The notes: generated by a model from the sequence alone, not told the origin. Counted from the stretch's first letter, positions 8,126-51,584 are shown. The stretch: 64,000 nt of DNA from Mycoplasmatota bacterium (GCA_018394315.1 CP074575.1:558001-622000); one strand, 5' to 3'. Numbers and translations are program-made.

Positions 8126-8620
8126 ATGATTAAACTAGCAATAAGAGAAGAACAAATAAAAGAATTAAAGAATAAAATAAAGACTCATAAAGAAAAACCA
8201 GGACCACTTATGCCTAGTTTGCATGATGCTCAGAAGCTAATAGGATGTATACCATATGAAATACAGAAAATGATATCAAAAGAATTAAACATTCCAGTTG
8301 CGAAAATAAATGGTGTAGTAACATTCTATGCACAATTTTCACTAGAACCAAAGGGTGAGAACATAATAGGAGTATGTTTAGGAACAGCATGTTATGTAAA
8401 AGGAGCCCAAGCAATATTAGATAAAATAGGTTCTGAATTAAAAATAAAGAGTAATGAAACTACAGATGATGGAAAATTCACACTAGAAGCAACAAGATGT
8501 ATTGGAGCATGTGGATTAGCTCCGGTGATGACTGTTAATGAAGAAGTATATGGTAATTTAAATGTATCAAAATCTGTAGAAGCCTTAAATAAGCATAAAG
8601 AGGGTGCTATTAATGATTAG
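8126..8620 (+). CDS. NuoE/HydC-like [2Fe-2S] subunit
   Basis: GVVTFYAQF, VCLGTACYVKG, CIGACGLAPV. Confidence 0.92.
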   Translation: MIKLAIREEQIKELKNKIKTHKEKPGPLMPSLHDAQKLIGCIPYEIQKMISKELNIPVAKINGVVTFYAQFSLEPKGENIIGVCLGTACYVKGAQAILDKIGSELKIKSNETTDDGKFTLEATRCIGACGLAPVMTVNEEVYGNLNVSKSVEALNKHKEGAIND

Positions 8621-10472: not shown

Positions 10473-10480
10473 GTGGAATT

Positions 10481-13279
10481 ATGGTTAAACTAGCAATCAA
10501 TGGAAAAATAATTGAATCAAGCAAAGAAAATACTATTCTTCAAGTGGCGATAGACAATAATATAGAGATACCACACATGTGCTACGATAAGAGACTAAAA
10601 TCTTACGGAGGTTGTGGGATGTGTGTTGTTGAAGTTGAAGGTTCTTCTAAATTGATGAGAGCCTGCTCAACCAATGTTTACGAAGGAATGGTAATTGAGA
10701 CTCATACTAAGAGAACCCATGATGCTAGAAAAATAGCTCTTGATTTATATGTCTCAGATCATAGAGGAGATTGTCTTCCACCGTGTACATTAGGATGTCC
10801 AGCAAGAACGGATATACAAGGATATGTTGGACTTATTGCAAATGGTCAATATATTGAAGCCGTAAAACTTATTAAACAGGCTATCCCAATACCAGCCAGT
10901 ATTGGTAGAGTTTGTCCACATCCTTGTGAAAGTGAATGTAGAAGAGATATTATAGAAGAACCAATTTCAGTTGCTACACTGAAATACTTTGCAGCTGATA
11001 TTGACTTGTTTAATGAAAAGCAATATATTCCAAATATAGCAAATGACACTAATAAAAAGATAGCTATTATTGGAGCGGGTCCAGCAGGTCTTTCAGCTGC
11101 ATACTTTTTAAGAACAAAAGGGCATAATGTTTCTATTTTTGAAGCAATGGCTAAGCCTGGTGGAATGTTAAGATACGGAATTCCGGAATACCGTTTACCA
11201 AAAGACATCATAGACCGTGAAGTTGCGATTATTGAAGATATGGGAGTAAAGATTAATTATAATATTAGACTTGGAGAAGATTTGAAAGTAAAAGAGATCC
11301 AAGATAATTTTGATGCATCCTTCATAGCTATTGGAGCTTGGAAAAGTTCTTCTATGAGATGTAAAGGAGAAGACTTAAACGGTGTAATTGGTGGAATTGA
11401 CTTCTTGCAGAAAGTAGCTAAAAAAGATCTTATAGATTTAGATGAAAGAGTTGTAGTAGTCGGTGGTGGTAATACTGCTATGGATGTTGCTAGAACTTGT
11501 GTTAGATTGGGTGTTAAAGAAGTAAGAGTATTATATAGAAGAACTGAGTCTGAAATGCCAGCTCAAGTCTTTGAGATACAGGAAGCTAAAGAAGAAGGAG
11601 TTATCTTTGATTTTTTAGTAGCTCCTATTGAAGTTACTGAAAAGAACGGAGTAGCTTCTGGAGTTATTTGTCAAAAAATGGAATTGGGTAAACCTGATGC
11701 AAGTGGAAGAAGAAGACCAATTCCAATTGAAGGAGAAACAACTTATTTTGAGACTAGTACAATTATTTCAGCAATTGGACAAAAAGTAACATTAGGTAAT
11801 ATCCAAGGAATTGAAACAACTGACTGGGGAACAATAGTTGTTGATGAATTAACTTACCAAACTAATATTGAGGGAATCTTCTCAGGTGGAGATTCAGTTA
11901 CAGGGCCAAAAGATGCAATTGATGCAATTGCTGCAGGTAAGAATGCAGCCAATGTAATAAATAGTTATTTGAATGGACATATAGTTCCTCGTTTTGAACA
12001 AAGATTAATAAGAAGAGACGATATGACAATTAGTGATTATCCTGATGTTAAGTCTAATCCAAGAGTTCAAAACAAAATAATCAATCCTGAGATAAGAAAG
12101 ACAAACTTTGATAAAGTGATACATAATTACACTGAACAAGAAGCATTATCTGAAGCTTCAAGATGTTTGGAGTGTGGTTGCAAAGATGTTTTTGAATGTG
12201 ATTTATTAAAGAATATTAAAGAACATAAAATTGATACTAATTTTGAACATGGTGAACAACATCGAAGAGTTCAAATAGATGATCATCCATTTATCCAAAG
12301 AGATTCTGATAAATGTATACAATGTGCACAATGTGTTAGAGTTTGTGATGAAGTAGTCGGAGCAACTGTTTTAGGGATTGTTGATAGAGGATTTGAGTCT
12401 TTAATTGTTCCTGAATCTTGTCTACCGTTATCTGAAACTAGTTGTGTTTCGTGTGGTGCATGTATTGACATATGTCCAACAGGAGCTTTAAAAGAAAGAC
12501 TGATTAACTCTAAGGAAATACCATTAGATTTTGACAGCACTGACTCAGTATGTACTCATTGTAGTTTAGGTTGCTTAGTTACATATCATTATAAAGACAA
12601 TAGAATATATAGAGTTACTCCTAATAATGATGATGGAGTGCTATGTGTGAAAGGTAAGTTTGAATTCGAGTACATCAATAGTGATGAAAGAATTACTGAA
12701 CCTATTATAAAGGATAGTTTTGATTCTTCTAAACTAGATAAGGTTGGATTTATCTTGTCACCTAGTTTGTTGAACGAAGATTTTATAGAAATTAAAGAAT
12801 TAGCAAATAAACTAGGAACTAATTATATTGGTACAACAGTTAAAAATATAGAAGAAGAAATAGATTTAGATAAATTATCAAGAAGAGAAAGAATAGATTT
12901 GATTACTAGTAGTTCATCTATATATAAACAAGATCTAAACAGCGGTGGAGCAAATAAAGCAAACTTGATGACTGGATCTGAAATTATATCTAAAATAAAG
13001 AGTGGTGATATTAAGAATTTAGTCTTGGTAGGAGTAACTGTTTCAAAAGAATTATTGGCATTAGTTGATGGACTTGATAATTTAATTGTTATGAGTTTAT
13101 TCTATGATGAATCATTAAAAAATGCAGATGTTATACTTCCATTAAGAACTAGTATTGAAAGAAGTGGGAATATTACTAGAATTGATGGTAAAAATGTAGA
13201 AATAACAAAGGTATTAGATTTATTATCAAGTAAAAGTAATAAAGAGGAACTAGAGAAAGTCTTTAAATTAAGTTATTAG
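10481..13279 (+). CDS. Fusion oxidoreductase: NuoG-like [2Fe-2S] + GltD/NfnB-like FAD/NAD(P) domain + ferredoxin + shortened molybdopterin-oxidoreductase domain (StnC/NfnABC-like)
   Basis: IPHMC..GGCGMCVVE, PCTLGCP, GRVCPHPCE, IIGAGPAG, VVVGGGNTAMD, CIQCAQCVRVC, CVSCGACIDICP, CTHCSLGC..LCVKG; no H-cluster motifs. Confidence 0.85.
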   Translation: MVKLAINGKIIESSKENTILQVAIDNNIEIPHMCYDKRLKSYGGCGMCVVEVEGSSKLMRACSTNVYEGMVIETHTKRTHDARKIALDLYVSDHRGDCLPPCTLGCPARTDIQGYVGLIANGQYIEAVKLIKQAIPIPASIGRVCPHPCESECRRDIIEEPISVATLKYFAADIDLFNEKQYIPNIANDTNKKIAIIGAGPAGLSAAYFLRTKGHNVSIFEAMAKPGGMLRYGIPEYRLPKDIIDREVAIIEDMGVKINYNIRLGEDLKVKEIQDNFDASFIAIGAWKSSSMRCKGEDLNGVIGGIDFLQKVAKKDLIDLDERVVVVGGGNTAMDVARTCVRLGVKEVRVLYRRTESEMPAQVFEIQEAKEEGVIFDFLVAPIEVTEKNGVASGVICQKMELGKPDASGRRRPIPIEGETTYFETSTIISAIGQKVTLGNIQGIETTDWGTIVVDELTYQTNIEGIFSGGDSVTGPKDAIDAIAAGKNAANVINSYLNGHIVPRFEQRLIRRDDMTISDYPDVKSNPRVQNKIINPEIRKTNFDKVIHNYTEQEALSEASRCLECGCKDVFECDLLKNIKEHKIDTNFEHGEQHRRVQIDDHPFIQRDSDKCIQCAQCVRVCDEVVGATVLGIVDRGFESLIVPESCLPLSETSCVSCGACIDICPTGALKERLINSKEIPLDFDSTDSVCTHCSLGCLVTYHYKDNRIYRVTPNNDDGVLCVKGKFEFEYINSDERITEPIIKDSFDSSKLDKVGFILSPSLLNEDFIEIKELANKLGTNYIGTTVKNIEEEIDLDKLSRRERIDLITSSSSIYKQDLNSGGANKANLMTGSEIISKIKSGDIKNLVLVGVTVSKELLALVDGLDNLIVMSLFYDESLKNADVILPLRTSIERSGNITRIDGKNVEITKVLDLLSSKSNKEELEKVFKLSY

Positions 13280-16261: not shown

Positions 16262-17926
16262 ATGTACAAGTCAGATTTAGAAATTGCTCAAGAAGTTACT
16301 ATGAAGCCTATTTCGGAAATAGCTAGTAAGCTAGGATTAGGAGAGGATGACTTAGAGTTATATGGTAAATATAAAGCTAAGGTAAATCCAGATGTAAAAG
16401 TAGACAGAAATGGGAAAGTAATTTTGGTAACAGCAATTAATCCTACACCAGCTGGTGAAGGAAAAACTACAGTTACTGTAGGATTAGGTCAAGCATTTGG
16501 TCAATTAGGAAAGAATTCGATAATTGCATTACGCGAACCATCATTTGGACCTGTAATGGGTATTAAGGGAGGAGCAGCAGGAGGAGGATATTCTCAAGTT
16601 GTACCAATGGAAGATTTAAATCTTCATTTCACTGGTGATATTCATGCAATCACTACTGCAAATAATGCAATTAGTGCTATTCTTGATAATCACTTACATC
16701 AAGGAAACGAATTAAACATTGACCAAAGAAGAATAGTTTGGAAGAGATGCTTAGACATGAATGATCGAGCATTGAGATTTGTAAATGTTGGGCTAGGTGG
16801 ACACACAAACGGAATTCCTAGAGAAGATGGATTTAATATTACAGTAGCAAGTGAAATTATGGCCGTACTATGCTTAGCTAGTGATATCGAAGATCTAAAA
16901 GAAAGAATTAAGAGAATGGTTGTAGCTTATACTTTTGATAGAAAACCAGTAACAGTTGGTGACTTAGGTTGCGAAGGTGCAGTGACATTAATCTTAAAAG
17001 ATGCTATAAAGCCAAACTTAGTTCAAACATTAGAACACACACCTGCATTAGTACATGGTGGACCATTTGCAAATATTGCTCATGGATGTAATAGTATCAT
17101 CGCTACTAACCTGGGTAGAAAGATGGCTGATTATGTGATTACTGAGGCAGGATTTGGTGCTGATTTAGGTGCTGAAAAATTCTTAAACATAAAGACAAGA
17201 AATGCCGGTTTTTCTCCGAGTGCAGTTGTAGTTGTTGCGACAATTAGAGCATTAAAAATGCATGGTGGTGTAAATAAAAAAGAACTACAACCTGAAAATG
17301 TAGAAGCACTAAAATCTGGTATAGAAAACTTAGCAAAACACTTGGATTCAATTTCAAAATTTAATGTTCCTTATGTTGTAGCTATTAATAAGTTTGTAAC
17401 TGACTCAGATGCTGAAATTGCTTTTATTAAAGAATGGTGCGAAGAAAATGGTCACCCAGTAGAATTAATTGAAGTATGGGCAAAAGGTGGAAGCGGTGCA
17501 GTTAATTTAGCTGAAAGAGTTTTACAAAGAATTGAAGAAGCTGATGGTGTAAACACTTTTACCCATTTGTATGAACTAGATGAATCACTAGAAGATAAAA
17601 TTAATAAAATTGCTACTAACATTTATGGAGCTGATGGAGTTGAATTTACTTCAAAAGCTAAAACTCAATTAAGAACATTTAAACGTAATGGATGGGATAA
17701 ACTAGCTGTTTGTATGGCTAAGACTCCTGCATCATTAACTGATAATCCAAAACTATATGGTAGACCGAAAGGGTTCAAAATTACTGTAAGAGAGTTAAGA
17801 CCAAGTATTGGTGCGGGATTCATAGTTGCGCTAACTGGTGATGTTATGACAATGCCAGGACTTCCAAAACAACCTGCTGCATTAAGAATGGATGTAGTTG
17901 ATGGTAAAGCGGAAGGGTTATTCTAA
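16262..17926 (+). CDS. fhs: Formate-tetrahydrofolate ligase
   Basis: [46 protein letters not shown]. Confidence 0.98.
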
Positions 17927-17987: not shown

Positions 17988-18075
17988 ATTTTAATAAAGA
18001 AAATATTAATTATTCTTAATTGAGTAGTGATTCTTAACTTCAATTTCACCATGAAAGGTGTTTTTCAGTGATACA

Positions 18076-18090
18076 CGGATTTTCAATCCG
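18076..18090 (+). repeat. Array site 1 (CGGATT-TTC-AATCCG, perfect 6-bp inverted arms)
   Basis: gatacaCGGATTTTCAATCCG; preceded by CACC-atgaaa-GGTG hairpin at 18047-18060. Confidence 0.93.
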
Positions 18091-18170
18091 AGAAATGAAA
18101 AATATTTCCCAACCCTCGTAATATGAACTATTATACATGTGTTCCAATCATTATTAAATATACGACAATA

Positions 18171-18662
18171 CTAAATAAACTTTTCATAGGAAACTGCATA
18201 TTCTTTAAAGCCATTTCGTTCATATACTTTTTTAGCATTATTGTTCCACGAATAAACATGTAGTTTAACTCTATTAATTCCTCTTTCCTTCATCCACTTA
18301 ATTGATTCATCTAGTAGTCTTTGTCCTAATCCAAACCCTCTTGCTATATCATCTACATATATTTCGTCAAGTAACCCCATCATACCAGTTCCATTATCTG
18401 AAGTATCAACCTGTTGAAATATTCTACTCAGTGTATATCCTACAGTCTTTCCCTCTAATTCTGCAATCAATATCATTGTATTTTCACTTCGATTATTAAA
18501 CGTTACTTCAGCTTTTTTTTGTACTGATTTAACAACTAAATTGTAGTCATCATTTTTAGATTTATCAGTATGATTGTCTCGACTGAATTTACTTAGTTTT
18601 ACTGCAAAGTCAACAAACGTATTTTTGTCACTACATACCGCTTTTCTTACTATTACTTCCAT
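18171..18662 (-). CDS. GNAT family N-acetyltransferase (cassette cargo)
   Basis: IYVDDIARGFGLGQRLL acetyl-CoA motif, NNNAKKVYERNGF; GGAGG RBS. Confidence 0.88.
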   Translation of the reverse strand: MEVIVRKAVCSDKNTFVDFAVKLSKFSRDNHTDKSKNDDYNLVVKSVQKKAEVTFNNRSENTMILIAELEGKTVGYTLSRIFQQVDTSDNGTGMMGLLDEIYVDDIARGFGLGQRLLDESIKWMKERGINRVKLHVYSWNNNAKKVYERNGFKEYAVSYEKFI

Positions 18663-18770
18663 GATTTTATCCTCCGATTATACTTATTTCTAAAAGAATT
18701 CAATGAATAGTATATCACAATCAGAATAAAACACCTATAGAAGGTGTTATTTCATTAATCTGGAGACATA

Positions 18771-18784
18771 CGGATTTTCAATCC
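18771..18784 (+). repeat. Array site 2
   Basis: gacataCGGATTTTCAATCC; AACACCT-atag-AAGGTGTT hairpin about 25 bp to the left. Confidence 0.93.
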
Positions 18785-18801
18785 ATAAGTACTTATTAGA
18801 T

Positions 18802-19230
18802 TTATGTCCATTTTCCAATAAAATCAGCTTCATCTAAATCACTAGTTGTTATATACTCTAATTTAATTGCTTCTTCTATTGATAACAATGAATCATTAAT
18901 ATGCACAAAAATAGGTTGTCTATTTATCCAATCTGGATTACATCCAGCACTAGTAAAATATACCCATGTAATTCCATCTTTGACATATAATGGATGTTCC
19001 ATTCCTGCTTCGCAAGGTCCCCATTCATGTTCATATATTTCATAGCCAGCCAGAGTTTTACCCTTATTAAACAATAAGTATGAATTATCTGGAATCATAA
19101 CTGTCATACAGTCATAAGTATCATCATGTATACACTCTTGAATATAGTCTGGTAATGTATTAATTTTCACACTATCAGAAACACAACCAGATAATAACAT
19201 CAAAGTTACTAATACTAAGATACTCTTCAT
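18802..19230 (-). CDS. Hypothetical lipoprotein (cassette cargo)
   Basis: Signal peptide with lipobox LSGC; GGAGGAG RBS. Confidence 0.78.
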   Translation of the reverse strand: MKSILVLVTLMLLSGCVSDSVKINTLPDYIQECIHDDTYDCMTVMIPDNSYLLFNKGKTLAGYEIYEHEWGPCEAGMEHPLYVKDGITWVYFTSAGCNPDWINRQPIFVHINDSLLSIEEAIKLEYITTSDLDEADFIGKWT

Positions 19231-19254
19231 AATTGCTCCTCCTTTATAGACACA

Positions 19255-19268
19255 CGGATTTTCAATCC
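19255..19268 (+). repeat. Array site 3
   Basis: gacacaCGGATTTTCAATCC. Confidence 0.93.
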
Positions 19269-19340
19269 AATCATTACTGTATTATATGTCATCATAAAAA
19301 TAGTTATCTAGGACATCATATATGCAAACCATGATGACAG

Positions 19341-19919
19341 TTAACGTTCAACTGGTAGTGATCCATGATTTTTATCATTTTTATAGTATGTAGTAATTTC
19401 AATCACTAGGAAACAAATAAGAACTATATCTCTAATAACAATTATTAAATTTGTACTTGCATACATAGTTACCGTAATACCTATAGCGCTTACAAAAATA
19501 AACAATAAAGTAATTATCCCGAATATACCAGATATTAATATAACATTATTTTTAGAATATTTATAATTTAATATATAAGCAACCAATACAAATAACAGAT
19601 CAAAAAACAAATATACAATACTGAAAATAGGAAGTACATCTTCAACAAAAATTTCAACAGAAAAGAAACTTGCCAAGAAAACTTTAATGACTGAAGATAG
19701 AAAAGCATAAACTAAAGGAAGCAAAAATAATAAAGCAATCCTTTTGGGATTTCCTAATTCTATAGTATAAATGGTTAATGAAATAAAAAACAACATACTT
19801 ACTAAGAATACATAAAAATAAAATTGACCCGTTGTTAATACAAAGCCATCTGTTAATGCAAAGCCATCTGATAATGCAAAGCCATCTGAGTTAAGTCGAT
19901 AAAAAAATAGAAAATTCAT
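19341..19919 (-). CDS. Hypothetical multi-pass membrane protein (cassette cargo); true start may be an in-frame ATA at 19967
   Basis: Several hydrophobic segments; AGGAGG lies 5 nt upstream of the in-frame ATA. Confidence 0.72.
   Translation of the reverse strand: MNFLFFYRLNSDGFALSDGFALTDGFVLTTGQFYFYVFLVSMLFFISLTIYTIELGNPKRIALLFLLPLVYAFLSSVIKVFLASFFSVEIFVEDVLPIFSIVYLFFDLLFVLVAYILNYKYSKNNVILISGIFGIITLLFIFVSAIGITVTMYASTNLIIVIRDIVLICFLVIEITTYYKNDKNHGSLPVER
19833..19886. repeat. Three tandem 18-bp in-frame repeats
   Basis: TGTTAATACAAAGCCATC / TGTTAATGCAAAGCCATC / TGATAATGCAAAGCCATC encoding DGFALS-DGFALT-DGFVLT. Confidence 0.9.
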
Positions 19920-20011
19920 TATAACACTGACAATAATTATCGCTAAGAAGAATAATTTACCTTTTATAAGTACCTCCTATAAATAGTATTTTAATTTTAA
20001 TGAACGACTTA

Positions 20012-20025
20012 CGGATTTTCAATCC
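20012..20025 (+). repeat. Array site 4
   Basis: gacttaCGGATTTTCAATCC. Confidence 0.93.
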
Positions 20026-20066
20026 TATTAATCCATTTTAGGTGCTTTAATACAAGGTTTAGTAAT

Positions 20067-20600
20067 TCAGCTTTCTTCCGAAATCTTTGTATAATGGTAG
20101 TTATTCGGTATTCTGATAAACCCTCTTATATGGTTGTCCTTTTTTCTCTCAACAATACCAGATACATTATTTATATTACCTTCTGCTGTGATTAAAGTGT
20201 CTATTTTGTTCTCTAAAACTATTCCTATATGGTCATGAGGTTGATTACAAAATACCTCATTATAGAGAACTATATCTCCTTTTTCAGGTGTGAATTTTCT
20301 ATTATTAGAAAAGTAAAATTTATTTTCAGGAAGGCTTGCCCATAACTCCCATGCACTACAGCCTGCAAAGTTACAAACCACTTTTTCGTCAGGATATTTT
20401 ACTGGCAAAGTAAACCCTGTTTTGATACAACAATAATAAACAAATGCAGCACACCACTTATTATCCCAGTTTTCTAAAGTCCACTTTGGGAACAAGTCTG
20501 CAATTGGTCCTATATTTGATTTAATCCCCATTACATTTCCATAAAAACTTTTCTGTGCTTCTTGTTTTGCGATTAGAGCTAATCTCTCTCTTTTTGTCAT
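20067..20600 (-). CDS. CHAP/NlpC-P60-like cysteine amidase domain protein (cassette cargo)
   Basis: WCAAFVYYC, PEKGDIVLY, DHIGIV, TAEGN; start at MTKRER after GGAGG. Confidence 0.8.
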   Translation of the reverse strand: MTKRERLALIAKQEAQKSFYGNVMGIKSNIGPIADLFPKWTLENWDNKWCAAFVYYCCIKTGFTLPVKYPDEKVVCNFAGCSAWELWASLPENKFYFSNNRKFTPEKGDIVLYNEVFCNQPHDHIGIVLENKIDTLITAEGNINNVSGIVERKKDNHIRGFIRIPNNYHYTKISEES

Positions 20601-20656
20601 TTTTCCTCCTACACTAAAATTTCGTATATTATATATAAGACTGTAACCAAGACACA

Positions 20657-20670
20657 CGGATTTTCAATCA
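20657..20670 (+). repeat. Array site 5 (1 mismatch)
   Basis: gacacaCGGATTTTCAATCA. Confidence 0.9.
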
Positions 20671-20811
20671 ATTACTTTCTATTCTTACTGACACCAAACC
20701 TTGGATTCCTATGTATAACATCATTATTGTTATAAACCCTTCTTGTTCAATAATAGCCATAATTATACAGAAAATGTAAGCTGTCTGAAAAATATTTTTA
20801 ATAACATTCAT
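20668..20811 (-). CDS. 47-aa hydrophobic small protein, not in the ORF track; sole content of the smallest unit
   Basis: AGAGGGAG RBS, ATG, MNVIKNIFQTAYIFCIIMAIIEQEGFITIMMLYIGIQGLVSVRIESN; TGA stop overlaps site 5. Confidence 0.6.
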   Translation of the reverse strand: MNVIKNIFQTAYIFCIIMAIIEQEGFITIMMLYIGIQGLVSVRIESN

Positions 20812-20828
20812 TTTCTCCCTCTAACATT

Positions 20829-20842
20829 CGGTTTTTCAATCC
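20829..20842 (+). repeat. Array site 6 (1 mismatch)
   Basis: aacattCGGTTTTTCAATCC. Confidence 0.88.
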
Positions 20843-20845
20843 CTT

Positions 20846-21151
20846 TTAGTCCTTAATGACTGCAGGTTCTTTTATAAAATACCTAATTGCCAAGTATAGA
20901 ATTATTATTATTGTATTATGCATAAACCACTGACTAATTAGGCTCCCAAAGTTCGTAACAATCACATAAACAGCATTCCACCATATTTCTTCCCTTATTA
21001 TTTCAGCATAAAAATTAATATGGTCCGTGAAGAAAAATATTAACTTTGTAATAGTTAAAACATTTACGATAGTAAAATAAACAATTAGAAACCTTTTTAA
21101 ATGTCTTTCTGAAGACAAAAATGCTTTAAAAGAAGACTTGATTCTTTCCAT
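20846..21151 (-). CDS. Small membrane protein, array paralog family
   Basis: Two hydrophobic segments; resembles ORFs at 23768, 24134 and 24597. Confidence 0.75.
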   Translation of the reverse strand: MERIKSSFKAFLSSERHLKRFLIVYFTIVNVLTITKLIFFFTDHINFYAEIIREEIWWNAVYVIVTNFGSLISQWFMHNTIIIILYLAIRYFIKEPAVIKD

Positions 21152-21252
21152 ATAACCCTCCCGTTTGAATTCTATAAATAGTATATCACAACAGTACTGT
21201 CGAATAAAGGAAGAAAAAAATTCACTGTAAGTTCAGTGAATTATATGTATAA

Positions 21253-21266
21253 GGGATTTTCAATCC
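21253..21266 (+). repeat. Array site 7 (1 mismatch)
   Basis: tatgtataaGGGATTTTCAATCC; TTCACTG-taagtt-CAGTGAA hairpin at 21221-21240. Confidence 0.9.
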
Positions 21267-21274
21267 TTAGTAAT

Positions 21275-22012
21275 TTACATATACCATAGTAATTTATTAT
21301 CCATTTTCTTTCCGATTTTACTTTTTTGTTCGATAACTTTCCATTTATCATTTTCTTTTACGACTTTGTAAACCGCATTTGTTCCATCTGATTTCTTAAA
21401 AAGTATATACGCATTATTACCATTAATAAGAGTCACAGGATTTGTAAAATTCTTATATGGCGGTTTCAAATCAGGATTCAATACATTAACTACAATGTCT
21501 AAAGCAATATCACTGAGTGAAGAATATTCTTTATGTTTTTCAGCAAGGAATAATAATTGATCAAATGAGTATTTGCTATATGTGTCTAAATCTAAGTTAA
21601 ATGACTGCTTTATATCCTTGATTATTTCAGAAGAAAATTCCAATATTAATTTTTCATACTCATCACCTAGATGGTCGTATTCTAATAGCTCTACTCCAGA
21701 TGGACTAACACTAAAAGTTATTGTCTCTATACCATATGGTGGATTATGAGCATGTTCAAAGGTACGAACCTTTACTTCTACCTCAAAGCTATAACCACTC
21801 ACTCTTTTAATATCTAAATCGACACTATATAGCATTAGTTGTTTATTGTAACCATAGTAATTAGAAATTTCTTCTCTAATATATGGATAAAGTGTAGTTA
21901 TTAAAGTATCATATACATCCTTATATTTAGGTTCTTGGTTAGTAGCATTGGTCGTTATTTGTGTTGCTATTATACTTAATATTAAAACTAAGATTACAAT
22001 TATTTTTTTCAT
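21275..22012 (-). CDS. Secreted DUF3888-like protein (cassette cargo)
   Basis: Signal peptide; LYPYIREEISNYYG...VKVRTFEHAHNPPYGIETITF resembles DUF3888 (recalled, not searched). Confidence 0.65.
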   Translation of the reverse strand: MKKIIVILVLILSIIATQITTNATNQEPKYKDVYDTLITTLYPYIREEISNYYGYNKQLMLYSVDLDIKRVSGYSFEVEVKVRTFEHAHNPPYGIETITFSVSPSGVELLEYDHLGDEYEKLILEFSSEIIKDIKQSFNLDLDTYSKYSFDQLLFLAEKHKEYSSLSDIALDIVVNVLNPDLKPPYKNFTNPVTLINGNNAYILFKKSDGTNAVYKVVKENDKWKVIEQKSKIGKKMDNKLLWYM

Positions 22013-22140
22013 TATTAATCATCCTTAATGTATTTATTAATAGTATTTTTTACTTTGATAGAAAAAACAATTCATCCAATATTCACAAAATGTCCTTCAT
22101 AAAAAAAATTCACTAAATTTACAGTGAATTATCAGCACAA

Positions 22141-22154
22141 CGGATTTTCAATCC
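22141..22154 (+). repeat. Array site 8
   Basis: gcacaaCGGATTTTCAATCC; AATTCACT...AGTGAATT hairpin at 22107-22130. Confidence 0.93.
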
Positions 22155-22166
22155 CAATATTTATAC

Positions 22167-22409
22167 TTAGGAGTTTTTTTTATTAATGGCTTTTAACAAT
22201 TCAATAATAACACCGAGAGCAATTAGTAATATTCCGCTAATGAAACCTGAAAACCAAGTTGATAATGTTACGATAAAACTCTCAGAATACAAGCCTAATA
22301 ACATCCCACCAAAAAAGGTAATAATTAATATGCCATATCCACTGGAGTTTAATATTTTTTCAATGTTATGCTTTACCTTTTCTTCAAAATTTACATCCTT
22401 GTTTTCCAT
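22167..22409 (-). CDS. Small two-TM membrane protein (cassette cargo)
   Basis: AAGGATG RBS-like site; hydrophobic; C-terminal GILLIALGVIIELLKAI. Confidence 0.72.
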   Translation of the reverse strand: MENKDVNFEEKVKHNIEKILNSSGYGILIITFFGGMLLGLYSESFIVTLSTWFSGFISGILLIALGVIIELLKAINKKNS

Positions 22410-22514
22410 AATAAATCATCCTTTCTCCTAAAAAATAGTAAACACTATAAGTATTGTAACATGACACTTTTTTTTAAAAAGAATAACCACATAGCCACTG
22501 AATTACATGTATAA

Positions 22515-22528
22515 CGGATTTTCAATCC
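22515..22528 (+). repeat. Array site 9
   Basis: catgtataaCGGATTTTCAATCC. Confidence 0.93.
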
Positions 22529-22564
22529 TATGCTATGCAATGTTTATCTGATAATCACACTCAG

Positions 22565-23176
22565 TTATTGATTCACTTCATAGTTTGAATCAACTAATAT
22601 CATGTAATCTTTATCATTCCTAAATCTTTTTTTCATAAATTTAATAAGTTCTTGTGTCCAACCTTCTTTTTCAGCCATGTCATCAATTTGAGCAACTGAA
22701 AACAAATAACGCATAACTCCATTCTCTAAGACTACTTCAAGTGCAGATGATGAAACAACTTCATAATCAGCTGGATCAAATGGAGTTTCTGTACAATCTT
22801 TAGCTATCACTTTATTATCTTTCACTGCAGTTATACAGTAAAAATTATACTGAGATCTTGCGTTATGTATAAAATTAATAATATAATTATGTGGCCACAT
22901 ACTATCATTAGTCCTGCTTGACCCATAATAAAAATAATATGTCACCTTGGTATCCTCTAGAGTCATAAAGGGATTATCATCTTCTAAATAAACAGTATTA
23001 ATAGAAACTCTCCTATATAAATCATAACTCTCAGTATCAAAATTTGATATATCATCAAAATTGGTATACTCTCTCCACATAGACTTTCCACCAGTAAATA
23101 ATGAGGGACACAGTAAAAAAATAATAGTTGTTAAAGTAAGTAAAATTCCTAAACCTAAAAGTAATACTTTTTTCAT
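22565..23176 (-). CDS. Hypothetical exported protein (cassette cargo)
   Basis: AGGAG RBS, MKKVLLLGLGILL signal/anchor. Confidence 0.72.
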   Translation of the reverse strand: MKKVLLLGLGILLTLTTIIFLLCPSLFTGGKSMWREYTNFDDISNFDTESYDLYRRVSINTVYLEDDNPFMTLEDTKVTYYFYYGSSRTNDSMWPHNYIINFIHNARSQYNFYCITAVKDNKVIAKDCTETPFDPADYEVVSSSALEVVLENGVMRYLFSVAQIDDMAEKEGWTQELIKFMKKRFRNDKDYMILVDSNYEVNQ

Positions 23177-23260
23177 GTACTCACTCTCCTTAATGACATT
23201 CTTGAAATAGTATACCATAAGTAGATAAAAACACCTATCAAAAGGTGCCTGATTGACATA

Positions 23261-23274
23261 CGGATTTTCAATCC
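23261..23274 (+). repeat. Array site 10
   Basis: gacataCGGATTTTCAATCC; CACCT-atcaaa-AGGTG hairpin to the left. Confidence 0.93.
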
Positions 23275-23294
23275 TATTACTATTCTTACTTAGT

Positions 23295-23639
23295 TTACTC
23301 CTTCAATTTTTTTTTTAGCAAGGTAAGAAAGATTATTACTGCCGGTGCTATACTGAAGATTATTCTATAATCAAGGATATTAAAATAGAAAAGTACAGCA
23401 GAAAGAACAATTAATGATATTTCTAACCTTTGTTGAAGAATCTCAAATTTAAGTCTATTAACGCTCATACTATCTAGTTGTTCTGTTTTCCAATAGCCTT
23501 TTTTATATATAAAAAATATCCAACTTACAATTAAAAACATTATAGTGAATGATCCTAATTTAGGTGCATTTAATATAATAATAATTGAAACTATATTAAG
23601 GAAAATAAAATCCAATATCCTAACAACTTTCTCATTCAT
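23295..23639 (-). CDS. Hypothetical membrane protein (cassette cargo)
   Basis: GGGGGTG RBS, four hydrophobic segments. Confidence 0.7.
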   Translation of the reverse strand: MNEKVVRILDFIFLNIVSIIIILNAPKLGSFTIMFLIVSWIFFIYKKGYWKTEQLDSMSVNRLKFEILQQRLEISLIVLSAVLFYFNILDYRIIFSIAPAVIIFLTLLKKKLKE

Positions 23640-23727
23640 AATGTTCACCCCCTGTATTCTATTAACAGTAAACATATTCAAAGAATAACACATATAAAGG
23701 TGTTATTGTCATAATTCTAGAGACACA

Positions 23728-23741
23728 CGGTTTTTTAATCC
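23728..23741 (+). repeat. Array site 11 (2 mismatches)
   Basis: gacacaCGGTTTTTTAATCC; AATAACAC...GTGTTATT hairpin to the left. Confidence 0.85.
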
Positions 23742-23767
23742 TAATCGCAATAACCACTTTTATCCTA

Positions 23768-24052
23768 TTAATCTTTGTTCCACAAAGTCAATCTAATAGA
23801 AATAAGTAAATAGACACCTATAATAGTAAATACATGTTTTATCCACGCAGATAGTAAGCCAGTAGTTGAAACTAGTAAACCATAGACTAGTACATCACTC
23901 ATATGACCTATTGATAACAATCCTTCTACAATAAAAGAAATAAAAAGCACTAGGTAGATAATGTTAATTAACCAAAAATAAATCCAGATTAACTTTATTA
24001 ATTTATGATTTGATTCTAAGAAACTAAAAAAATTTTCTCTTGCTCTTTCCAT
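23768..24052 (-). CDS. Small membrane protein, array paralog family
   Basis: GAGGAGG RBS; MERARENFFSFLESN...SAWIKHVFTIIGVYLLISIR. Confidence 0.78.
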   Translation of the reverse strand: MERARENFFSFLESNHKLIKLIWIYFWLINIIYLVLFISFIVEGLLSIGHMSDVLVYGLLVSTTGLLSAWIKHVFTIIGVYLLISIRLTLWNKD

Positions 24053-24094
24053 AGAATACCTCCTCAATAAATAAAACAAATAATTATTAAAACA

Positions 24095-24108
24095 TAGTTC
24101 GTCAATCC
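24095..24108 (+). repeat. Degenerate array site between two paralogs
   Basis: aacaTAGTTCGTCAATCC at the expected position, about 25 bp from the stop of the 24134 gene. Confidence 0.5.
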
Positions 24109-24133
24109 TAATTAGCAATAAAATTTTTTTTTA

Positions 24134-24409
24134 TTAATCTTTGTTCTTTAAATTGATTCTAATAGATATTAGTAAATAAACACCTATGATAGTTAACATA
24201 TGCTTTATCCATGCCGATAAAAAAGCTAGTATTGAATGTGCTAATTGATGACCTAAAAGAGAATCCCAAGATGAAAATCTTGCGATAAAAGAAAGAACAA
24301 AAAGTGCTAAGTATATAATAGTAATTACCAAGAAATAAATCCATACTAGTTTCAACAATTTTTCATTTGATTCCACCACGCTAAATATATACTCCTTTAC
24401 TCTTTTCAC
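24134..24409 (-). CDS. Small membrane protein, array paralog family
   Basis: GGAGTG RBS and GTG start; SAWIKHMLTIIGVYLLISIR nearly identical to the neighbouring paralog. Confidence 0.78.
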   Translation of the reverse strand: MKRVKEYIFSVVESNEKLLKLVWIYFLVITIIYLALFVLSFIARFSSWDSLLGHQLAHSILAFLSAWIKHMLTIIGVYLLISIRINLKNKD

Positions 24410-24504
24410 AAAATCACTCCCATAAATTAAGCATTCTATAAACAGTATATCATATGAAAATCATAACACCTATATAAGGTGTTATTCTATTATCTAACGA
24501 TACA

Positions 24505-24518
24505 CGGCTTTTCAATCC
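24505..24518 (+). repeat. Array site 12 (1 mismatch)
   Basis: gatacaCGGCTTTTCAATCC; ATAACACCT-atat-AAGGTGTTAT hairpin to the left. Confidence 0.9.
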
Positions 24519-24533
24519 TTAGTTATCTATACT

Positions 24534-24562
24534 TTGACTACTCCAAGTTCAAATGATACTAT
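24534..24562 (+). promoter_or_regulatory. Sigma-A-like promoter of the inverted cassette gene
   Basis: TTGACT-17 bp-TACTAT with TG upstream of the -10. Confidence 0.55.
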
Positions 24563-24596
24563 TAGAATATATATGTAAACAGAAGGGAGTTAATAA

Positions 24597-24896
24597 ATGA
24601 TGAAGTATATAATCAAGATACTTGAATCAAATGAAATTATGAAAAAAGTATTATTGTTCTATGTATTGCTTTTTCTAATGTTTTCAGCTTGGTATATTAT
24701 ACATCATTTCAGAGAATACCAAATTGTAATAGAACAAATAAATTCAAGTCCTTATAATAGTTCTCTGAGTAACCTTAATTATCATTACAAATACGATATC
24801 ATTTTGCCTCACATTAAAACATGGATATTAAATATCTTTGGTATTATAGTTGTTTACTTACTTATATCAATTAGGGAAAAGCTTAAAACAATATAA
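24597..24896 (+). CDS. Small membrane protein, distant array paralog, inverted orientation
   Basis: ILESNEIMKK and IIVVYLLISIR shared with the family; GGGAG RBS. Confidence 0.75.
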   Translation: MMKYIIKILESNEIMKKVLLFYVLLFLMFSAWYIIHHFREYQIVIEQINSSPYNSSLSNLNYHYKYDIILPHIKTWILNIFGIIVVYLLISIREKLKTI

Positions 24897-24901
24897 ATTA
24901 G

Positions 24902-24928
24902 AAATCTCCTTTGTACAGGAGATTTTTT
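24902..24928 (+). terminator. Terminator of the inverted cassette gene
   Basis: AAATCTCCT-ttgtac-AGGAGATTTTTT. Confidence 0.75.
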
Positions 24929-24937
24929 ATTAACACA

Positions 24938-24951
24938 CGGATTTTCAATCC
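24938..24951 (+). repeat. Array site 13
   Basis: aacacaCGGATTTTCAATCC. Confidence 0.93.
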
Positions 24952-25216
24952 CATGTTAGGAATAAAAACTTCAAATCTGTGTATAAAATATTTCAGGTGT
25001 TGAGGTGATGCATATGTATAAAAAAAGGACAAGTGTTCAAGAAGAACATCTAGTCCATCAGTAAAGAAATTTAGATGATTAAACAGTTATTTTATATTTC
25101 TAAAATATTATTTCTCAAAGAAACTTTCATATCCATAATCTAAATTAATAATCTTAACTTATATTATTACAACAGAACCAAGAAAAGTTGGTTCATACCA
25201 TTTTCGTTATCCTTTC

Positions 25217-25735
25217 TTATTCTTTACATCTCTCTGTTTCATAACTAAAGCCACGAGTTACTTCAGTTGTTACGCTTCTTAAAATCAATGATAGTAGCTC
25301 CTCATCATAGCTTTCAATAACAAATGATTCAGGAGAAGTTGAAACCATATGAATAGAATCATGTTCGACATTAAAATATACATAAACTCTTCTTAGACTA
25401 GAATTATATATAACATCCACTCTTATATCATATGGATTATATCCAATACGTTTTACAATTGAATTATCAAAATCTACAATGAGTGATTCTAAGAAATCCT
25501 CTACAATTCCTTTAAGTTCATAATTATATAAATTTGGATCATCAATATCTTCATTCGGTGAAACACATTCATTCATTATTACTGATTTTGAAACTTCGGG
25601 GTAATCTATAGTTACTGCAAGTATTTCCATACTCGAAAGATCTTTTATTGGATTATTGTCGTTTGAGTTTGCTTTGTACCCAATATAGACAAGTATCAAA
25701 ATTAACAATAAAGAAATCTTTAAGTTTTTTTTCAT
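25217..25735 (-). CDS. Hypothetical exported protein (cassette cargo)
   Basis: GAGG RBS, MKKNLKISLLLILILV anchor. Confidence 0.7.
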   Translation of the reverse strand: MKKNLKISLLLILILVYIGYKANSNDNNPIKDLSSMEILAVTIDYPEVSKSVIMNECVSPNEDIDDPNLYNYELKGIVEDFLESLIVDFDNSIVKRIGYNPYDIRVDVIYNSSLRRVYVYFNVEHDSIHMVSTSPESFVIESYDEELLSLILRSVTTEVTRGFSYETERCKE

Positions 25736-25869
25736 TATAGTCCTCACCTTTATAAAAGTTTATCCCCTTATGTGTCATTATAGCATAAAATAGTATTTAA
25801 CTTGATTAAATCTATGATAAAGTAAAGGAAGAAAAAATTCACTGTAAATACAGTGAACTATATGTATAA

Positions 25870-25883
25870 CGGATTTTCAATCC
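25870..25883 (+). repeat. Array site 14
   Basis: tatgtataaCGGATTTTCAATCC; TTCACTGT-aaat-ACAGTGAA hairpin to the left. Confidence 0.93.
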
Positions 25884-27253: not shown

Positions 27254-27399
27254 CTCATCACATCCTTATTTAATCACAATTGTAATTGATTAAGAGGTTT
27301 ATGTCAATGAATCATAAGACAAACTAGCTTCACTTACTAAAGAAAACACCAATTTTCAAATTAGTGTCTTAATATACATTTTTTTCTTTTAGCAACATA

Positions 27400-27413
27400 A
27401 GATCTTTCAATCC
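27400..27413 (+). repeat. Degenerate array site
   Basis: acataAGATCTTTCAATCC, 9 bp from the stop of the 27423 gene; AAAACACC..TAGTGT hairpin remnant to the left. Confidence 0.6.
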
Positions 27414-27422
27414 GCAAACAGA

Positions 27423-28154
27423 TTATTTATTATTAAGTATCTGTTGATAATCACTAACAATATCTTTAATGTTTTGACTTTGTCCTTCTAGTGGTTTATT
27501 AATATCGTAACCACTTAGCTCGACTGATTTATAACTATAATAGAAGTTACCATCCTGATTTCTCGGATCAGTATTTCTTTCAGCCTCTTCGCTATCTACA
27601 AACCCTCCCAAAAACAAGTATACTTCATCAACCAAAATTTCCTTATCCTCAAGACATAGATCTGATACGTATACACCTGGATATTCAACACTTCGAGGTA
27701 TTTGCAACTCATTACTTAGTTTAGAATCACCTAATAAATCATTAATAAATGTAATTGAATACCTATACTTATCTATCAGTGGGCTATGATCTTCATTAAG
27801 TATGCTAAATTCCCTAATTTCTTTTAATTCATCTACTCTAGCTATAAAAATATTTTCACTCCATCCAACAACTGCCACATTATCTTCAAGACTAAATGCG
27901 CAATCACCATGCAATCCTAATCCAACATATTTTAAATATAGTGGGGTTGCGTTAATATATAATCCGGTAGTTAAAATTGTCAGTAGAAGTATATATACAT
28001 ATTGTAAGCGAAATTTTTTTTTATGTAGTAGTGTATCTCCAAATGATTTTTGTTTCTTTATAATGTCGTTTTCAAGTTTAACTCTTCTATATGTTAGATA
28101 ACTCATTATAATTATAACAGTAATCAGTAAAATCAATAAATATTTAATAATCAT
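27423..28154 (-). CDS. Hypothetical membrane-anchored protein, coupled to the LytTR gene
   Basis: Two N-terminal TM segments; starts 1 nt after the LytTR gene stop. Confidence 0.72.
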   Translation of the reverse strand: MIIKYLLILLITVIIIMSYLTYRRVKLENDIIKKQKSFGDTLLHKKKFRLQYVYILLLTILTTGLYINATPLYLKYVGLGLHGDCAFSLEDNVAVVGWSENIFIARVDELKEIREFSILNEDHSPLIDKYRYSITFINDLLGDSKLSNELQIPRSVEYPGVYVSDLCLEDKEILVDEVYLFLGGFVDSEEAERNTDPRNQDGNFYYSYKSVELSGYDINKPLEGQSQNIKDIVSDYQQILNNK

Positions 28155-30146: not shown

Positions 30147-31262
30147 TTATTTTAGTTTGATTACCCTTTCCATCCTATCCAAAGCTTCTTTTAGTGAATC
30201 ATAATCTATGGCACATGATATTCTAATGTGATTTTCAAAATCACCAAAACAAGTTCCAGGAATAACCGCAACTTTTTCTTTTTCTAATAGATCATAGAAT
30301 AGCTTTTCGGAATGATATGGAACCTCAGGGAAAATGTAATATGTTCCGTTTGGCTTAACAACATTTAATCCCATTTTTATTAATCTATTGTATGCATACT
30401 CAACATTCTTCTTATAGTAATTTATTCTTTCTGATATATCACAATCAATTTCAGTTGCTGCATACTGAGTGATTGTATTAACTGCTACTACTACATATTG
30501 ATGAACCTTCATAATAGACTGAATGATTTCTCTTGAAGCTAACACATATCCTATTCTCCATCCAGTTAGTGAATGTGATTTTGATAATCCATTTATAATT
30601 ATTATTTTATCTTTTACACTTGGATCCACTATGGATTTAAAATCGTCAATCATTATTCTATTATATATTTCATCTAAGATAACATATATATCATGTTCTT
30701 TTAATATCTTTTTGATATCCTCAATACTTTGTGAATCTAAACTTACCCCAGTTGGGTTATTTGGGTAATTTAAGATAAGACATCTAGTCTTACTAGTTAT
30801 ATGTTTTTTTAAGTTATTATACCTAATTTGAAAATCATCGATACTTGTATCCATAAAGATACTAACTGAATTATTTAAAGTAACTAATGGTGAATATCCT
30901 GTATATGCAGGAGTAGGAATTATTACTTCATCATCTGGATTAAGCAATGCTGCTAAAGTTGATGATAGAGCTTCAGTAGAACCCACAGTAATCATTATTT
31001 CATCCATACCGTAATGTTGATTAAAATATTTTTTTACGTAATTTAAAATGCTTTTCTTAGTATCTACTCTACCCTCGCTTAGGACGTACTTATAATCGTT
31101 GTTTTCAATTGCAAATATAGCAGCGTTTTGAATATCTTTTGGTGGTGCAAAGTGAGGTTCCCCGATTGTTAGTTTGATAATGTTATCATATTTCATTGCT
31201 TCAATATTAAAATGACGAATCATAGGGAATGCAATTTTAGATAGGTTATTATTTGTTTTCAT
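30147..31262 (-). CDS. PLP-dependent class I/II aminotransferase (PatA-like, possibly N-acetyl-DAP aminotransferase)
   Basis: LTIGEPHF, PNNPTG, DEIY, GLSKSHSLTGWRIG; divergent from dap genes. Confidence 0.88.
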   Translation of the reverse strand: MKTNNNLSKIAFPMIRHFNIEAMKYDNIIKLTIGEPHFAPPKDIQNAAIFAIENNDYKYVLSEGRVDTKKSILNYVKKYFNQHYGMDEIMITVGSTEALSSTLAALLNPDDEVIIPTPAYTGYSPLVTLNNSVSIFMDTSIDDFQIRYNNLKKHITSKTRCLILNYPNNPTGVSLDSQSIEDIKKILKEHDIYVILDEIYNRIMIDDFKSIVDPSVKDKIIIINGLSKSHSLTGWRIGYVLASREIIQSIMKVHQYVVVAVNTITQYAATEIDCDISERINYYKKNVEYAYNRLIKMGLNVVKPNGTYYIFPEVPYHSEKLFYDLLEKEKVAVIPGTCFGDFENHIRISCAIDYDSLKEALDRMERVIKLK

Positions 31263-31334
31263 ATGCTCTCCTTTAAGTAAATAATAATCTGACAAGGTAA
31301 CACAAATGTTATTTAGTGCGTAAAATAATAAGAA

Positions 31335-50335: not shown

Positions 50336-51153
50336 ATGAAAAAAATAATAATTATTGGGTTTTCTATTATAGGAATAATCGTGGTTTTAACTAGTAAAAT
50401 TCCTGAAAATACATTGGAAAATTATTTTGATATTATTTATGATATGAAGAGTTATGATGTTAGTAAAATTCAATCTGGTACTGAACTGGATTTGATTATT
50501 TCTCAAACTTCGGTAAAAAATAAATGCAAAGAATATTTTTCTAGCGACTTAACTCAGAATGTAAATGCTGTTAAATCTCATATCCAATTATTAACTAACG
50601 CCATATCTAATGGATATACATTTTCCTTGGATAATCTAGATTATACATATTATACAAATAGTAGTAAGAGGAACATAAGAAACTTAAACTATAACATTAA
50701 GGTTGTTTTTATTGATGAGGAAATGAATGAGCAGTTACTTGAAGTAAAAGGTTATTTACAACTTGTATTAAGGGATTCTAAATGGGTTATTAATACTGAT
50801 CAAGTAGTAGTCTTTCCAAAGGAAGAACTAGGGATGATAGAAACTATAGAAGATATAGAAAGAGAAGTTATTAATCAAGACTTGATAGATGATAAAAGCA
50901 TTCAAGAGGAAATGCTAAAAGATTATTTTGATGTTATTTATGATATAGAAAATTATGATGTTGTTTCAATAAAAAATGGCTCTAAAATGGAAGCCTTTCT
51001 AGTTCAAGATTCGGTTATAAAAAAATGCAGTCAGTATTTTACTGAAGAGTTATCAAGATATTTATAGAGATGGTACAGAAAAATCAATTATTAATAGAAG
51101 CAATATCAACTGGATATACTTTTAATCTTAATGATATAGAAGATTTAGGTTAA
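50336..51153 (+). pseudogene. Exported protein with a duplicated domain; second copy frameshifted and truncated
   Basis: ORF stops at 51067, but a shifted frame continues QLLIEAISTGYTFNLND, matching first-copy QLLTNAISNGYTFSLDN. Confidence 0.6.
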
Positions 51154-51401
51154 TGAAGTAAATAATAAGGAATAGAACTTATGCAAAAGAAGAGTGACAA
51201 TATGTTTAATGATGTTGTAGTTCTTATTGCGTTATCCAATCTTATTTCAAATAGTTTATAAGTCAAAGGAAGAATTATTAGTAGTACAGAAATATATGAG
51301 ATGTAATAATTGAAGAATATATCTATTTTTATATTTGAAACAAGAGAAATTATTAGCGTGAACAGTGTTATAAGTGAGTTTATTCTTAAGTTATTTGTCA
51401 T
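51150..51401 (-). CDS. Small hydrophobic protein
   Basis: GGGGAGG RBS; three hydrophobic segments. Confidence 0.6.
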   Translation of the reverse strand: MTNNLRINSLITLFTLIISLVSNIKIDIFFNYYISYISVLLIILPLTYKLFEIRLDNAIRTTTSLNILSLFFCISSIPYYLLH

Positions 51402-51584
51402 TTTATTTTCCTCCCCTATACTATTTTTATAGGATGTAGTTTACGAAGTTTGTTCTTTTTTGAAATTGGTTAGTGAATTGGGAATCTACGAGTATGAAAA
51501 AAAGAGTAATTCAAGTTGATTTAAGTAGATATTTTGTAGTAAAATGTTATAATGTTTAATGTAAGAAAATAGTAGGAGGAAAAT

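Follow-up and report, generated by a model that had tools for sequence, protein, structure and literature searches.

Copies of the tRNA-Phe anticodon arm separate single genes in a Mycoplasmatota island and are probably minimal integration sites of a cassette system

Why should a row of small genes in a bacterial chromosome be punctuated by copies of one piece of a tRNA gene? The question is raised by a 64,000-nt stretch of a Mycoplasmatota bacterium (GCA_018394315.1, CP074575.1:558001–622000; C1:558001–622000 of the genome labelled G000 here), called the window, in which a 20-bp motif occurs 14 times between positions 18070 and 25883, always on the minus strand. An earlier note, made from this sequence alone, had likened the motif to the anticodon arm of tRNA-Phe(GAA) and proposed that the sites derive from, or mimic, the attachment (att) core of a tRNA-Phe integrase repurposed to stack single genes away from the tRNA locus. 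The explanation favoured here, with a probability of roughly 0.75, is that an integrative element targeting tRNA-Phe left these repeats as minimal att junctions and that a visiting integrase uses them as a cassette system; within the same figure, the DNA between two cores would be a mobile cassette, usually of one gene. The window array would be an orphan, since no helper element is found in G000. The explanation draws on four features of the sequences: the site is a core of the host tRNA, an integrase clade resides at tRNA-Phe in relatives, whole units recur, and their junctions lie in the GA-loop.

ARAGORN identifies 34 tRNA genes in G000, of which one is tRNA-Phe(GAA) (C1:696172–696247), and this gene carries the motif exactly, at positions 29–48. 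The comparison of host tRNA-Phe with the repeat had been set beforehand as a refuting test; there is no substantial difference between them, and the proposed resemblance is borne out. Aligned to host positions 29–48 and scored as matches out of 20, sites 1–14 give 19, 19, 20, 18, 19, 16, 15, 16, 16, 19, 18, 18, 19 and 16, the copy at 19249–19268 being exact. The core consists of GA, the 7-nt anticodon loop and TCC(G/A)TNTGTC, ~20 bp in all. The tRNA-Phe gene is 112 kb away from the nearest window site and on the opposite strand. Likeness to it ends after position 48: none of the 14 sites extends further, the 28 nt behind the core match the tRNA at 4–10 of 28 positions, and GTTCG is absent from the 50 nt after the core at all 14. 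ARAGORN detects no tRNA in the window, in agreement with the earlier note. That no T-arm follows any copy, as the note also stated, holds for the window sites but not for two copies elsewhere in G000 (C1:667306 and 668473), which bear T-arms and bracket a single NUDIX gene in a tRNA-Ser island. These two copies (within C1:667306–668560) are near-identical tRNA-Phe 3′ halves with a common tail of ~90 bp, and carry the CCAT allele of other genera's tRNA-Phe, not the CCGT of the host. Two further sites lie 1.2–1.4 kb downstream of the G000 tRNA-Phe gene.

The sites are not a chance pattern: when built from those of the window, a profile matches the genome 21 times above 20 bits versus 0–1 times in three shuffles, although for the 14 sites used in training this count is circular. 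A second profile, built solely from sites of a relative, G004, recovers all 14 window sites (17.8–34.7 bits); between 14001 and 34000 it adds one weak gapped match, and between 25.9 and 30.1 kb it finds no clear extra site. Among 27 distinct anticodon arms of G000, that of tRNA-Phe is present in 10 exact copies and 28 near ones (at most 2 mismatches), those of tRNA-Trp and tRNA-Gln three exact copies each, and the others one or two. Of 401 genomes of the class, three stand out for an exact 15-mer, with 13 copies in G000, 6 in G001 and 56 in G004; none of the remaining 398 has more than two. This pattern is too strict for the C-loop arrays of a second family, f19. In a 401-genome sample of the phylum, more than two copies are present in G000 and G151 only.

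The relatives contain what the tRNA-Phe locus of G000 lacks. In G004 (family f1), a 287-aa tyrosine integrase lies directly 3′ of tRNA-Phe and points at it, followed by a Rep_trans-like gene (E 1.8e-6, just under cut-off), a helix-turn-helix (HTH) gene and cargo; beyond these lie two sites of array type and two with a full 3′ half. The catalytic motifs of the integrase are TGLR, HKWRH, LGH and TQRY. Its clade has a support of 100/99 in the integrase tree, which does not settle its relation to the tRNA-Trp integrases. When 300 class genomes were searched with P0004, of the Phe integrase clade, the four best-match genomes (G004, G207, G151 and G193) all had the integrase beside tRNA-Phe, and weaker matches lay by tRNA-Arg, Trp or Thr, or by no tRNA (13 loci). 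The integrase that the earlier note led one to expect at tRNA-Phe is present there in these four and was not found in G000. In three genomes (G151, G207, G004), arrays begin directly after the element with the Phe integrase; an array at the tRNA-Phe locus, with the same kind of sites behind the integrase, is found in G004 and G151, while the G000 locus has no integrase. The ~408 kb fetched around matches in G004 (of a 2,449-kb genome) contain at least six arrays, with 108 sites at no more than 2 mismatches when the tRNA itself is counted. Several cores there (L012, L017, L018, L020, L024) are immediately followed by 1.2–1.6-kb segments, 98–99% alike, that are probably copies of an insertion sequence (IS). 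A metagenome scan with the array-type pattern returned two loci, both ordinary tRNA-Phe genes; viral scans gave no sites and one distant integrase (31%) without a site; a genome-collection scan with a single integrase returned its own record only.

The second family, represented by G151 (one contig, ~117 kb fetched), bears on the origin of the sites. The locus runs from tRNA-Phe through an IS and the integrase to at least 11 sites spaced ~0.4–0.9 kb apart, and three of five additional arrays (of at least three sites) lie a short way downstream of the genes for tRNA-Lys, Trp and Leu. L085 3678–4148, between tRNA-Phe and integrase, is a transposase judged by eye to be IS200-like. Exact copies number 39 in G151, and 12 of 71 f19 genomes have at least 5. 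The site has the form TGCATGAAAC-GA-CTGAAAA-TCCATGTGTC, in which the left half, TGCATGAAAC-GA, is constant and element-side, the loop is the C-loop of the host, and the right half is tRNA-derived, grading from a full 3′ half down to the bare core. A T-arm follows the core at 7 of 44 G151 sites and 2 of 79 G004 sites; one array head (573971 in G151) has a tRNA-like rather than an element-type left flank. As the 3′ half forms a decay series, the sites would derive from att junctions, and of the two options in the earlier note it is derivation, not mimicry, that stands. With positions 3 and 13 left free in the pattern, the loop base is T in 84/87 f1 sites and C in 44/44 G151 sites, and position 13 is G in 80/87 and A in 41/44, in each case the base of the host tRNA. 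Sites in one genome are kin, so these are two lineage-level observations for which P values are not valid tests.

Do the units move? In G151, a 567-bp unit is present in two arrays at 100% identity, which runs from position +1 into the next core, and with a 607-bp pair (99.4%) it makes two pairs among 53 units. The 93 units of G004 include pairs of 743 bp (98%), 487 bp (98.5%), 341 bp (94%) and 683/696 bp (86%), and the 746-bp unit of the window matches the 743-bp G004 pair at 88–89% DNA identity, core to core. The neighbours of recurring units differ in each case, and homology between unit copies stops at the site. A variant at position 0 tracks the unit upstream of it, and one at position 10 the unit downstream, which brackets the exchange to positions 1–9, GA-TTGAAAA; G151 junctions give the same left bound. 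Integrases of this type have a 7-bp overlap, and the earlier note had named a crossover outside the 7-bp anticodon loop as a refuting outcome. The loop does lie inside the bracket given by natural junctions, which at 9 bp is not resolved to 7 bp. The available part of the SNJ2 paper (PMC5861418) has nothing on anticodon-loop crossover.

A passive origin of the array has to be weighed at this point: decayed elements, or cis-mobilizable elements (CIMEs), may have stacked at tRNA-Phe and later been moved as blocks, with the sites as scars and no shuffling of single genes by the integrase. Accretion of decayed elements is described in PMC5704250, G000 has such stacks at tRNA-Ser, Arg, His and Gln and lacks the helper, and window segment 27423–28644 (a LytTR and a 243-aa gene) is 82% identical over 1.2 kb to C1:699596–700775, 3.4 kb downstream of tRNA-Phe, a hint of block transfer. 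Such an origin is nevertheless unlikely. Single units that are 98–100% alike occur in different arrays, where they end at the core and adjoin other neighbours; the core is kept while the adjoining T-arm decays; and G004 and G151 each have at least six arrays. The tRNA 3′-fragment stacks of G000 lie behind tRNA-Glu, Ser(GCT), His, Gln, Ser(TGA) and Arg(TCT) (C1:369691–390026, 253447–266546, 638139–639680, 673916–685505 and 1435327–1470391), so this genome accretes islands at many tRNAs.

The earlier note had also described a CGGA/TCCG stem at site 1. The stem is there in the sequence, but it is not a kept structure: the pair A2:T10 is disrupted at 27 of 122 sites, and compensatory change is found at none. 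Since stem pairs show no compensation, the repeat, judged by its sequence variation, acts as a DNA site and not as a conserved RNA stem. This also lowers the standing of the proposal that each gene has, 5′ of it, an operator for some regulator or an RNA element mimicking tRNA; in its favour are a copy upstream of nearly every gene and the dyad GGATT-GAA-AATCC. A terminator-like hairpin often intervenes between site and promoter, copy homology ends at the site, and expansions occur in two families only among those searched; a regulatory role of this kind is very improbable.

The 14 sites delimit 13 units (a unit being the DNA between neighbouring sites, core included) of 172–932 bp, mostly with one minus-strand gene each; one has two paralogues and one an inverted gene. 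The features are as follows, with fractions giving matches to tRNA-Phe 29–48.

16262–17926, plus: fhs (formate-tetrahydrofolate ligase; PF01268), left flank of the island
18070–18089, minus: att core 1 (19/20), last in cassette direction; then a hairpin arm without a gene, then the fhs terminator
18171–18662, minus: GNAT acetyltransferase gene, 163 aa (PF00583, E 6.4e-17); unit 18090–18784, 695 bp
18765–18784, minus: att core 2 (19/20); then an ACACCT/AGGTGT hairpin (18730–18748) and an extended -10-like motif
18802–19230, minus: 142-aa gene, no Pfam match, lipoprotein-like N-terminus by eye; unit 484 bp; weak G004 homologue (30%)
19249–19268, minus: att core 3 (20/20), exact tRNA-Phe 29–48
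19341–19919, minus: 192-aa membrane-like gene, no Pfam match; unit 757 bp; 60% and 44% aa identity to G004 array genes
20006–20025, minus: att core 4 (18/20)
20067–20657, minus: CHAP-domain gene, 196 aa (PF05257, E 1.3e-7); unit 645 bp
20651–20670, minus: att core 5 (19/20)
20689–20811, minus: 41-aa open reading frame (ORF), no Pfam match; smallest unit, 172 bp
20823–20842, minus: att core 6 (16/20)
20846–21151, minus: 101-aa gene, no Pfam match; unit 424 bp; 33% aa identity to a G004 array gene
21247–21266, minus: att core 7 (15/20); then a TTCACTG/CAGTGAA terminator-like hairpin (21219–21242)
21275–22012, minus: DUF3888 gene, 245 aa (PF13027, E 3.6e-18); unit 888 bp
22135–22154, minus: att core 8 (16/20)
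22167–22409, minus: 80-aa gene; unit 374 bp; 69% aa identity, full length, to a G004 array gene
22509–22528, minus: att core 9 (16/20)
22529–23274, minus: 746-bp unit, gene 22565–23218; 88–89% DNA and 81–82% aa identity to two 743-bp G004 units
23255–23274, minus: att core 10 (19/20)
23295–23693, minus: 132-aa gene, no Pfam match; unit 467 bp
23722–23741, minus: att core 11 (18/20)
23768–24409, minus: two paralogous small membrane-like ORFs (23768–24118 and 24134–24409; 53% mutual aa identity; DNA repeat D4); unit 777 bp
24499–24518, minus: att core 12 (18/20); then a hairpin (24463–24485)
24597–24896, plus: inverted gene, 99 aa; unit 433 bp
24932–24951, minus: att core 13 (19/20)
25217–25747, minus: 176-aa gene; unit 932 bp; 71–72% aa identity to two G004 homologues
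25864–25883, minus: att core 14 (16/20), first intact site; then a terminator-like hairpin (25836–25859)
27394–27413, minus: probable decayed 15th site (14/20), after the stop of the 243-aa gene 27423–28154
30147–31295, minus: aminotransferase, right flank of the island

The longest ORF is co-oriented with the array in 11/13 window units, 71/75 G004 units (≤1.2 kb) and 50/53 G151/G207 units. Good Pfam scores are obtained for three of 14 unit ORFs in the window (GNAT, CHAP, DUF3888), and 78 of 98 G004 array ORFs have no Pfam match, with six GNATs in that set. Pfam finds no recombinase among the window unit proteins, and PADLOC names none of 18 window proteins, leaving a defence island without support. 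The 757-bp unit has 73% DNA identity to G004 from the core onward. A hairpin of one of two types stands right of the core at 8 of 14 window sites, and an extended -10-like motif at 8 of 14 versus 1 of 14 on the left (45 and 5 of 108, respectively, in G004); the motif is a pattern match only. A terminator scan gives 8 matches versus 1.6 ± 1.0 in shuffled sequence, and a sigma-70 scan a weak excess (78 versus 59.5 ± 5.8). The 15th site at 27394–27413 falls below the threshold of the G004 profile and is suggested by its position alone; the 243-aa gene before it has a G004 homologue (74%) that is followed by an intact site, and occurs there as a cassette gene.

The island has a GC content of 28%, compared with 32–33% in its flanks. 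The distance between fhs and the aminotransferase is 12.2 kb in the window versus 1.5 kb in G004, and the 1.5-kb fhs flanks of G001, G002, G004 and G005 lack any site at up to 3 mismatches, which makes the island lineage-specific. Elsewhere in the window, a 38-nt repeat occurs three times within ORFs at 50336–52817 (spacing 501 and 682 bp; family D7, D13), possibly one repeat protein split over two ORFs, and a large hydrogenase/NADH-oxidoreductase-like cluster, named by eye, spans 8126–13279. Outside the window, ARAGORN also calls a tRNA-SeC(TCA) in G000, at C1:712683–712779.

Phe sites are not the only ones in these arrays. The exact anticodon arm of tRNA-Trp occurs 39 times in G004, 7 times in G000 and 4 times in G001 (examples are G004 L019 15157–15225 and L016, and G001 L026 2141–2179), and Trp and Phe sites interleave in the same arrays, in the same direction. 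Their cores have the common frame GG(A/T)-7 nt-(T/A)CCGT, and the conserved left flank of the Trp sites resembles the end of the G000 Trp element. In G004, 12 Phe cores have a Trp core 55–57 bp further on, adapter-like; no window Phe site is followed by one. Both G004 homologues of the 176-aa gene (25217–25747) follow Trp sites (132219 and 1731287), whereas the window copy follows a Phe site, so cargo can switch site type. Three Trp-type sites 0.8–1.7 kb apart at C1:1430867–1433420 of G000, far from tRNA-Trp and one with most of a 3′ half, form a probable Trp cassette array.

The units might be moved by another enzyme or route, namely the tRNA-Trp integrase, XerC/D or recombinase-independent exchange at 15–20-bp repeats. 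The shared frame and the interleaving speak for this, as does the presence in G000 of an intact Trp integrase where no Phe one was found. It is set back by the arrays that begin behind the Phe integrase element in three genomes, by the G151 left half-site, which is uniform at nearly all sites as the binding site of one protein would be, and by the confinement of junctions to 9 bp; it appears distinctly less probable than the passive origin discussed above.

In the favoured explanation, an element with a 287-aa tyrosine recombinase, a Rep-like gene and an HTH repressor would integrate across the anticodon loop. Deletion derivatives with both ends and one gene would accumulate behind it, and the tRNA 3′ half would erode once the need to rebuild the tRNA ends. 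A 974-bp G004 unit (328688–329662) retains, from the right arm of the element, 244 bp that take in the tail of the integrase gene, together with one GNAT gene; it is a deletion derivative of the element and points to a likely route of cassette birth. So short a recombinase would, by its size, have no room for a lambda-type arm-binding domain, and, being Xer/Cre-sized, it would probably need the core half-sites alone, lifting a unit between direct sites as a circle and reinserting it at any other site. New arrays would begin at cryptic tRNA-like sites or at sites imported within other islands. Many units would supply their own hairpin/terminator and promoter, so that expression need not depend on array rank. 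The helper would be transient, and the G000 array probably dormant until a helper visits or the tRNA-Trp integrase acts in trans. The earlier picture of sites from a tRNA-Phe integrase that stack single genes is supported, and none of the three refuting outcomes set for it was seen; a repurposed integrase, or one resident in G000, is conjecture.

Several observations weigh against this explanation. G000 has ten tyrosine recombinase matches, none in the window and none beside tRNA-Phe, and its best matches to the Phe integrase (37–46%) belong to tRNA-Trp elements; with an assembly completeness of 93.6% and a contig that begins within a tRNA-Trp island, this does not prove the helper absent. G000 has no second whole copy of any window unit, which leaves current activity there unsupported. 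Several duplicated pairs share the gene and one arm only, not the whole unit, so other recombination also acts. The left half-site of f1 is GGA only, weaker than a working core would lead one to expect and shorter than the TGCATGAAAC-GA of G151 (the logo includes some chance matches among the 28 of G000), and about half of the sites lack hairpin and promoter motifs as defined. The last array site, next to fhs, carries a cassette-type arm and not plain chromosome.

How does the system compare with known ones? Like integrons, sedentary chromosomal integrons and attC-site clusters without an integrase (CALINs), it has co-oriented single-gene cassettes with mostly unknown proteins and GNATs, shuffled order and integrase-less orphan arrays. 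Unlike those of integrons, its sites are conserved in sequence and not in structure. Integron cassettes are mostly promoterless and are read from a promoter near attI; here many units may have a promoter of their own, to judge from the extended -10-like motif. By TIGR02249, the Phe integrase scores 74.7 bits against an IntI cut-off of 265, and none of three genomes (G000, G001, G004) has a protein above it. attC sites are imperfect palindromes bearing R boxes and kept in structure, with the frame RYYYAAC...GTTRRRY, which occurs at none of the 14 window sites, nor do these have a common long hairpin (the IntegronFinder covariance model was not part of the search). With no IntI above cut-off and no attC, the system, as read from these sequences, functions in the manner of integrons without being one of them. 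It appears as likely as not to be a functioning analogue of integrons that evolved independently, in which arm-independent tRNA-element recombinases serve genome-wide libraries of tens to more than 100 single-gene, self-expressed cassettes; the same evenly balanced view would take the host anticodon arm as the sole recombination signal and let the Phe and Trp systems share arrays via the 55–57-bp adapters.

By descent, again on sequence grounds, the system is tRNA-island integration plus CIME accretion. Islands of the anticodon-loop subsite in Islander (PMC4383910) likewise have a tyrosine integrase beside the tRNA and a displaced 3′ fragment from the anticodon stem; fragments starting there are seen at G004 328688 and 329662 and at several G151 sites. 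Unlike those islands (PMC4383910), most sites here are internal tRNA fragments, 29–48, that fall short of the tRNA 3′ end, the units have no integrase and the arrays are far from the tRNA, as is true of the window array and of most in G004 and G151. Islander lists four tandems of at least three among 3919 islands (PMC4383910), in contrast to 13 to ~100 units per genome in these arrays.

The closest known case is the tandem accretion of CIMEs. Behind integrative and mobilizable or integrative and conjugative elements (IMEs/ICEs), these have lost their integration and transfer genes, kept their att ends, stack at one site and are served by another element's integrase (PMC5704250); the 974-bp G004 unit fits that definition (PMC5704250). 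In the present arrays, unlike CIMEs, units are cut to one gene and a 20-bp core, lie off the target locus in several arrays, recur singly between arrays and genera, and interleave two tRNA specificities. The tycheposon islands of Prochlorococcus (bioRxiv 10.1101/2020.12.28.424599) are similarly built by transient tRNA-targeting elements, with scattered partial tRNAs as new targets, but there integrases are carried, att measures ~40 nt and most islands are adjacent to the tRNA; the available text does not describe a regular series of one-gene units bounded by minimal sites. Nor did the literature search find such arrays described, most subscription papers being outside its coverage, so that absence from print is not established.

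A system of this kind would be missed by attC-based searches and by Islander, whose filter rejects internal tRNA fragments and candidates below 2 kb (PMC4383910). Iterative gene stacking is a possible use for so compact a pair, an enzyme of 287 aa with sites of 20 bp. The survey made with IntegronFinder 2 found no integrons in 400 Tenericutes genomes (bioRxiv 10.1101/2022.02.28.482270). If the explanation is true, integron-style shuffling exists in a lineage where integrons were not found, and wall-less Bacilli would have arrived anew at cassette-level gene shuffling, starting with an ordinary tRNA-island integrase. It would also account for hypervariable islands that form away from tRNA genes.

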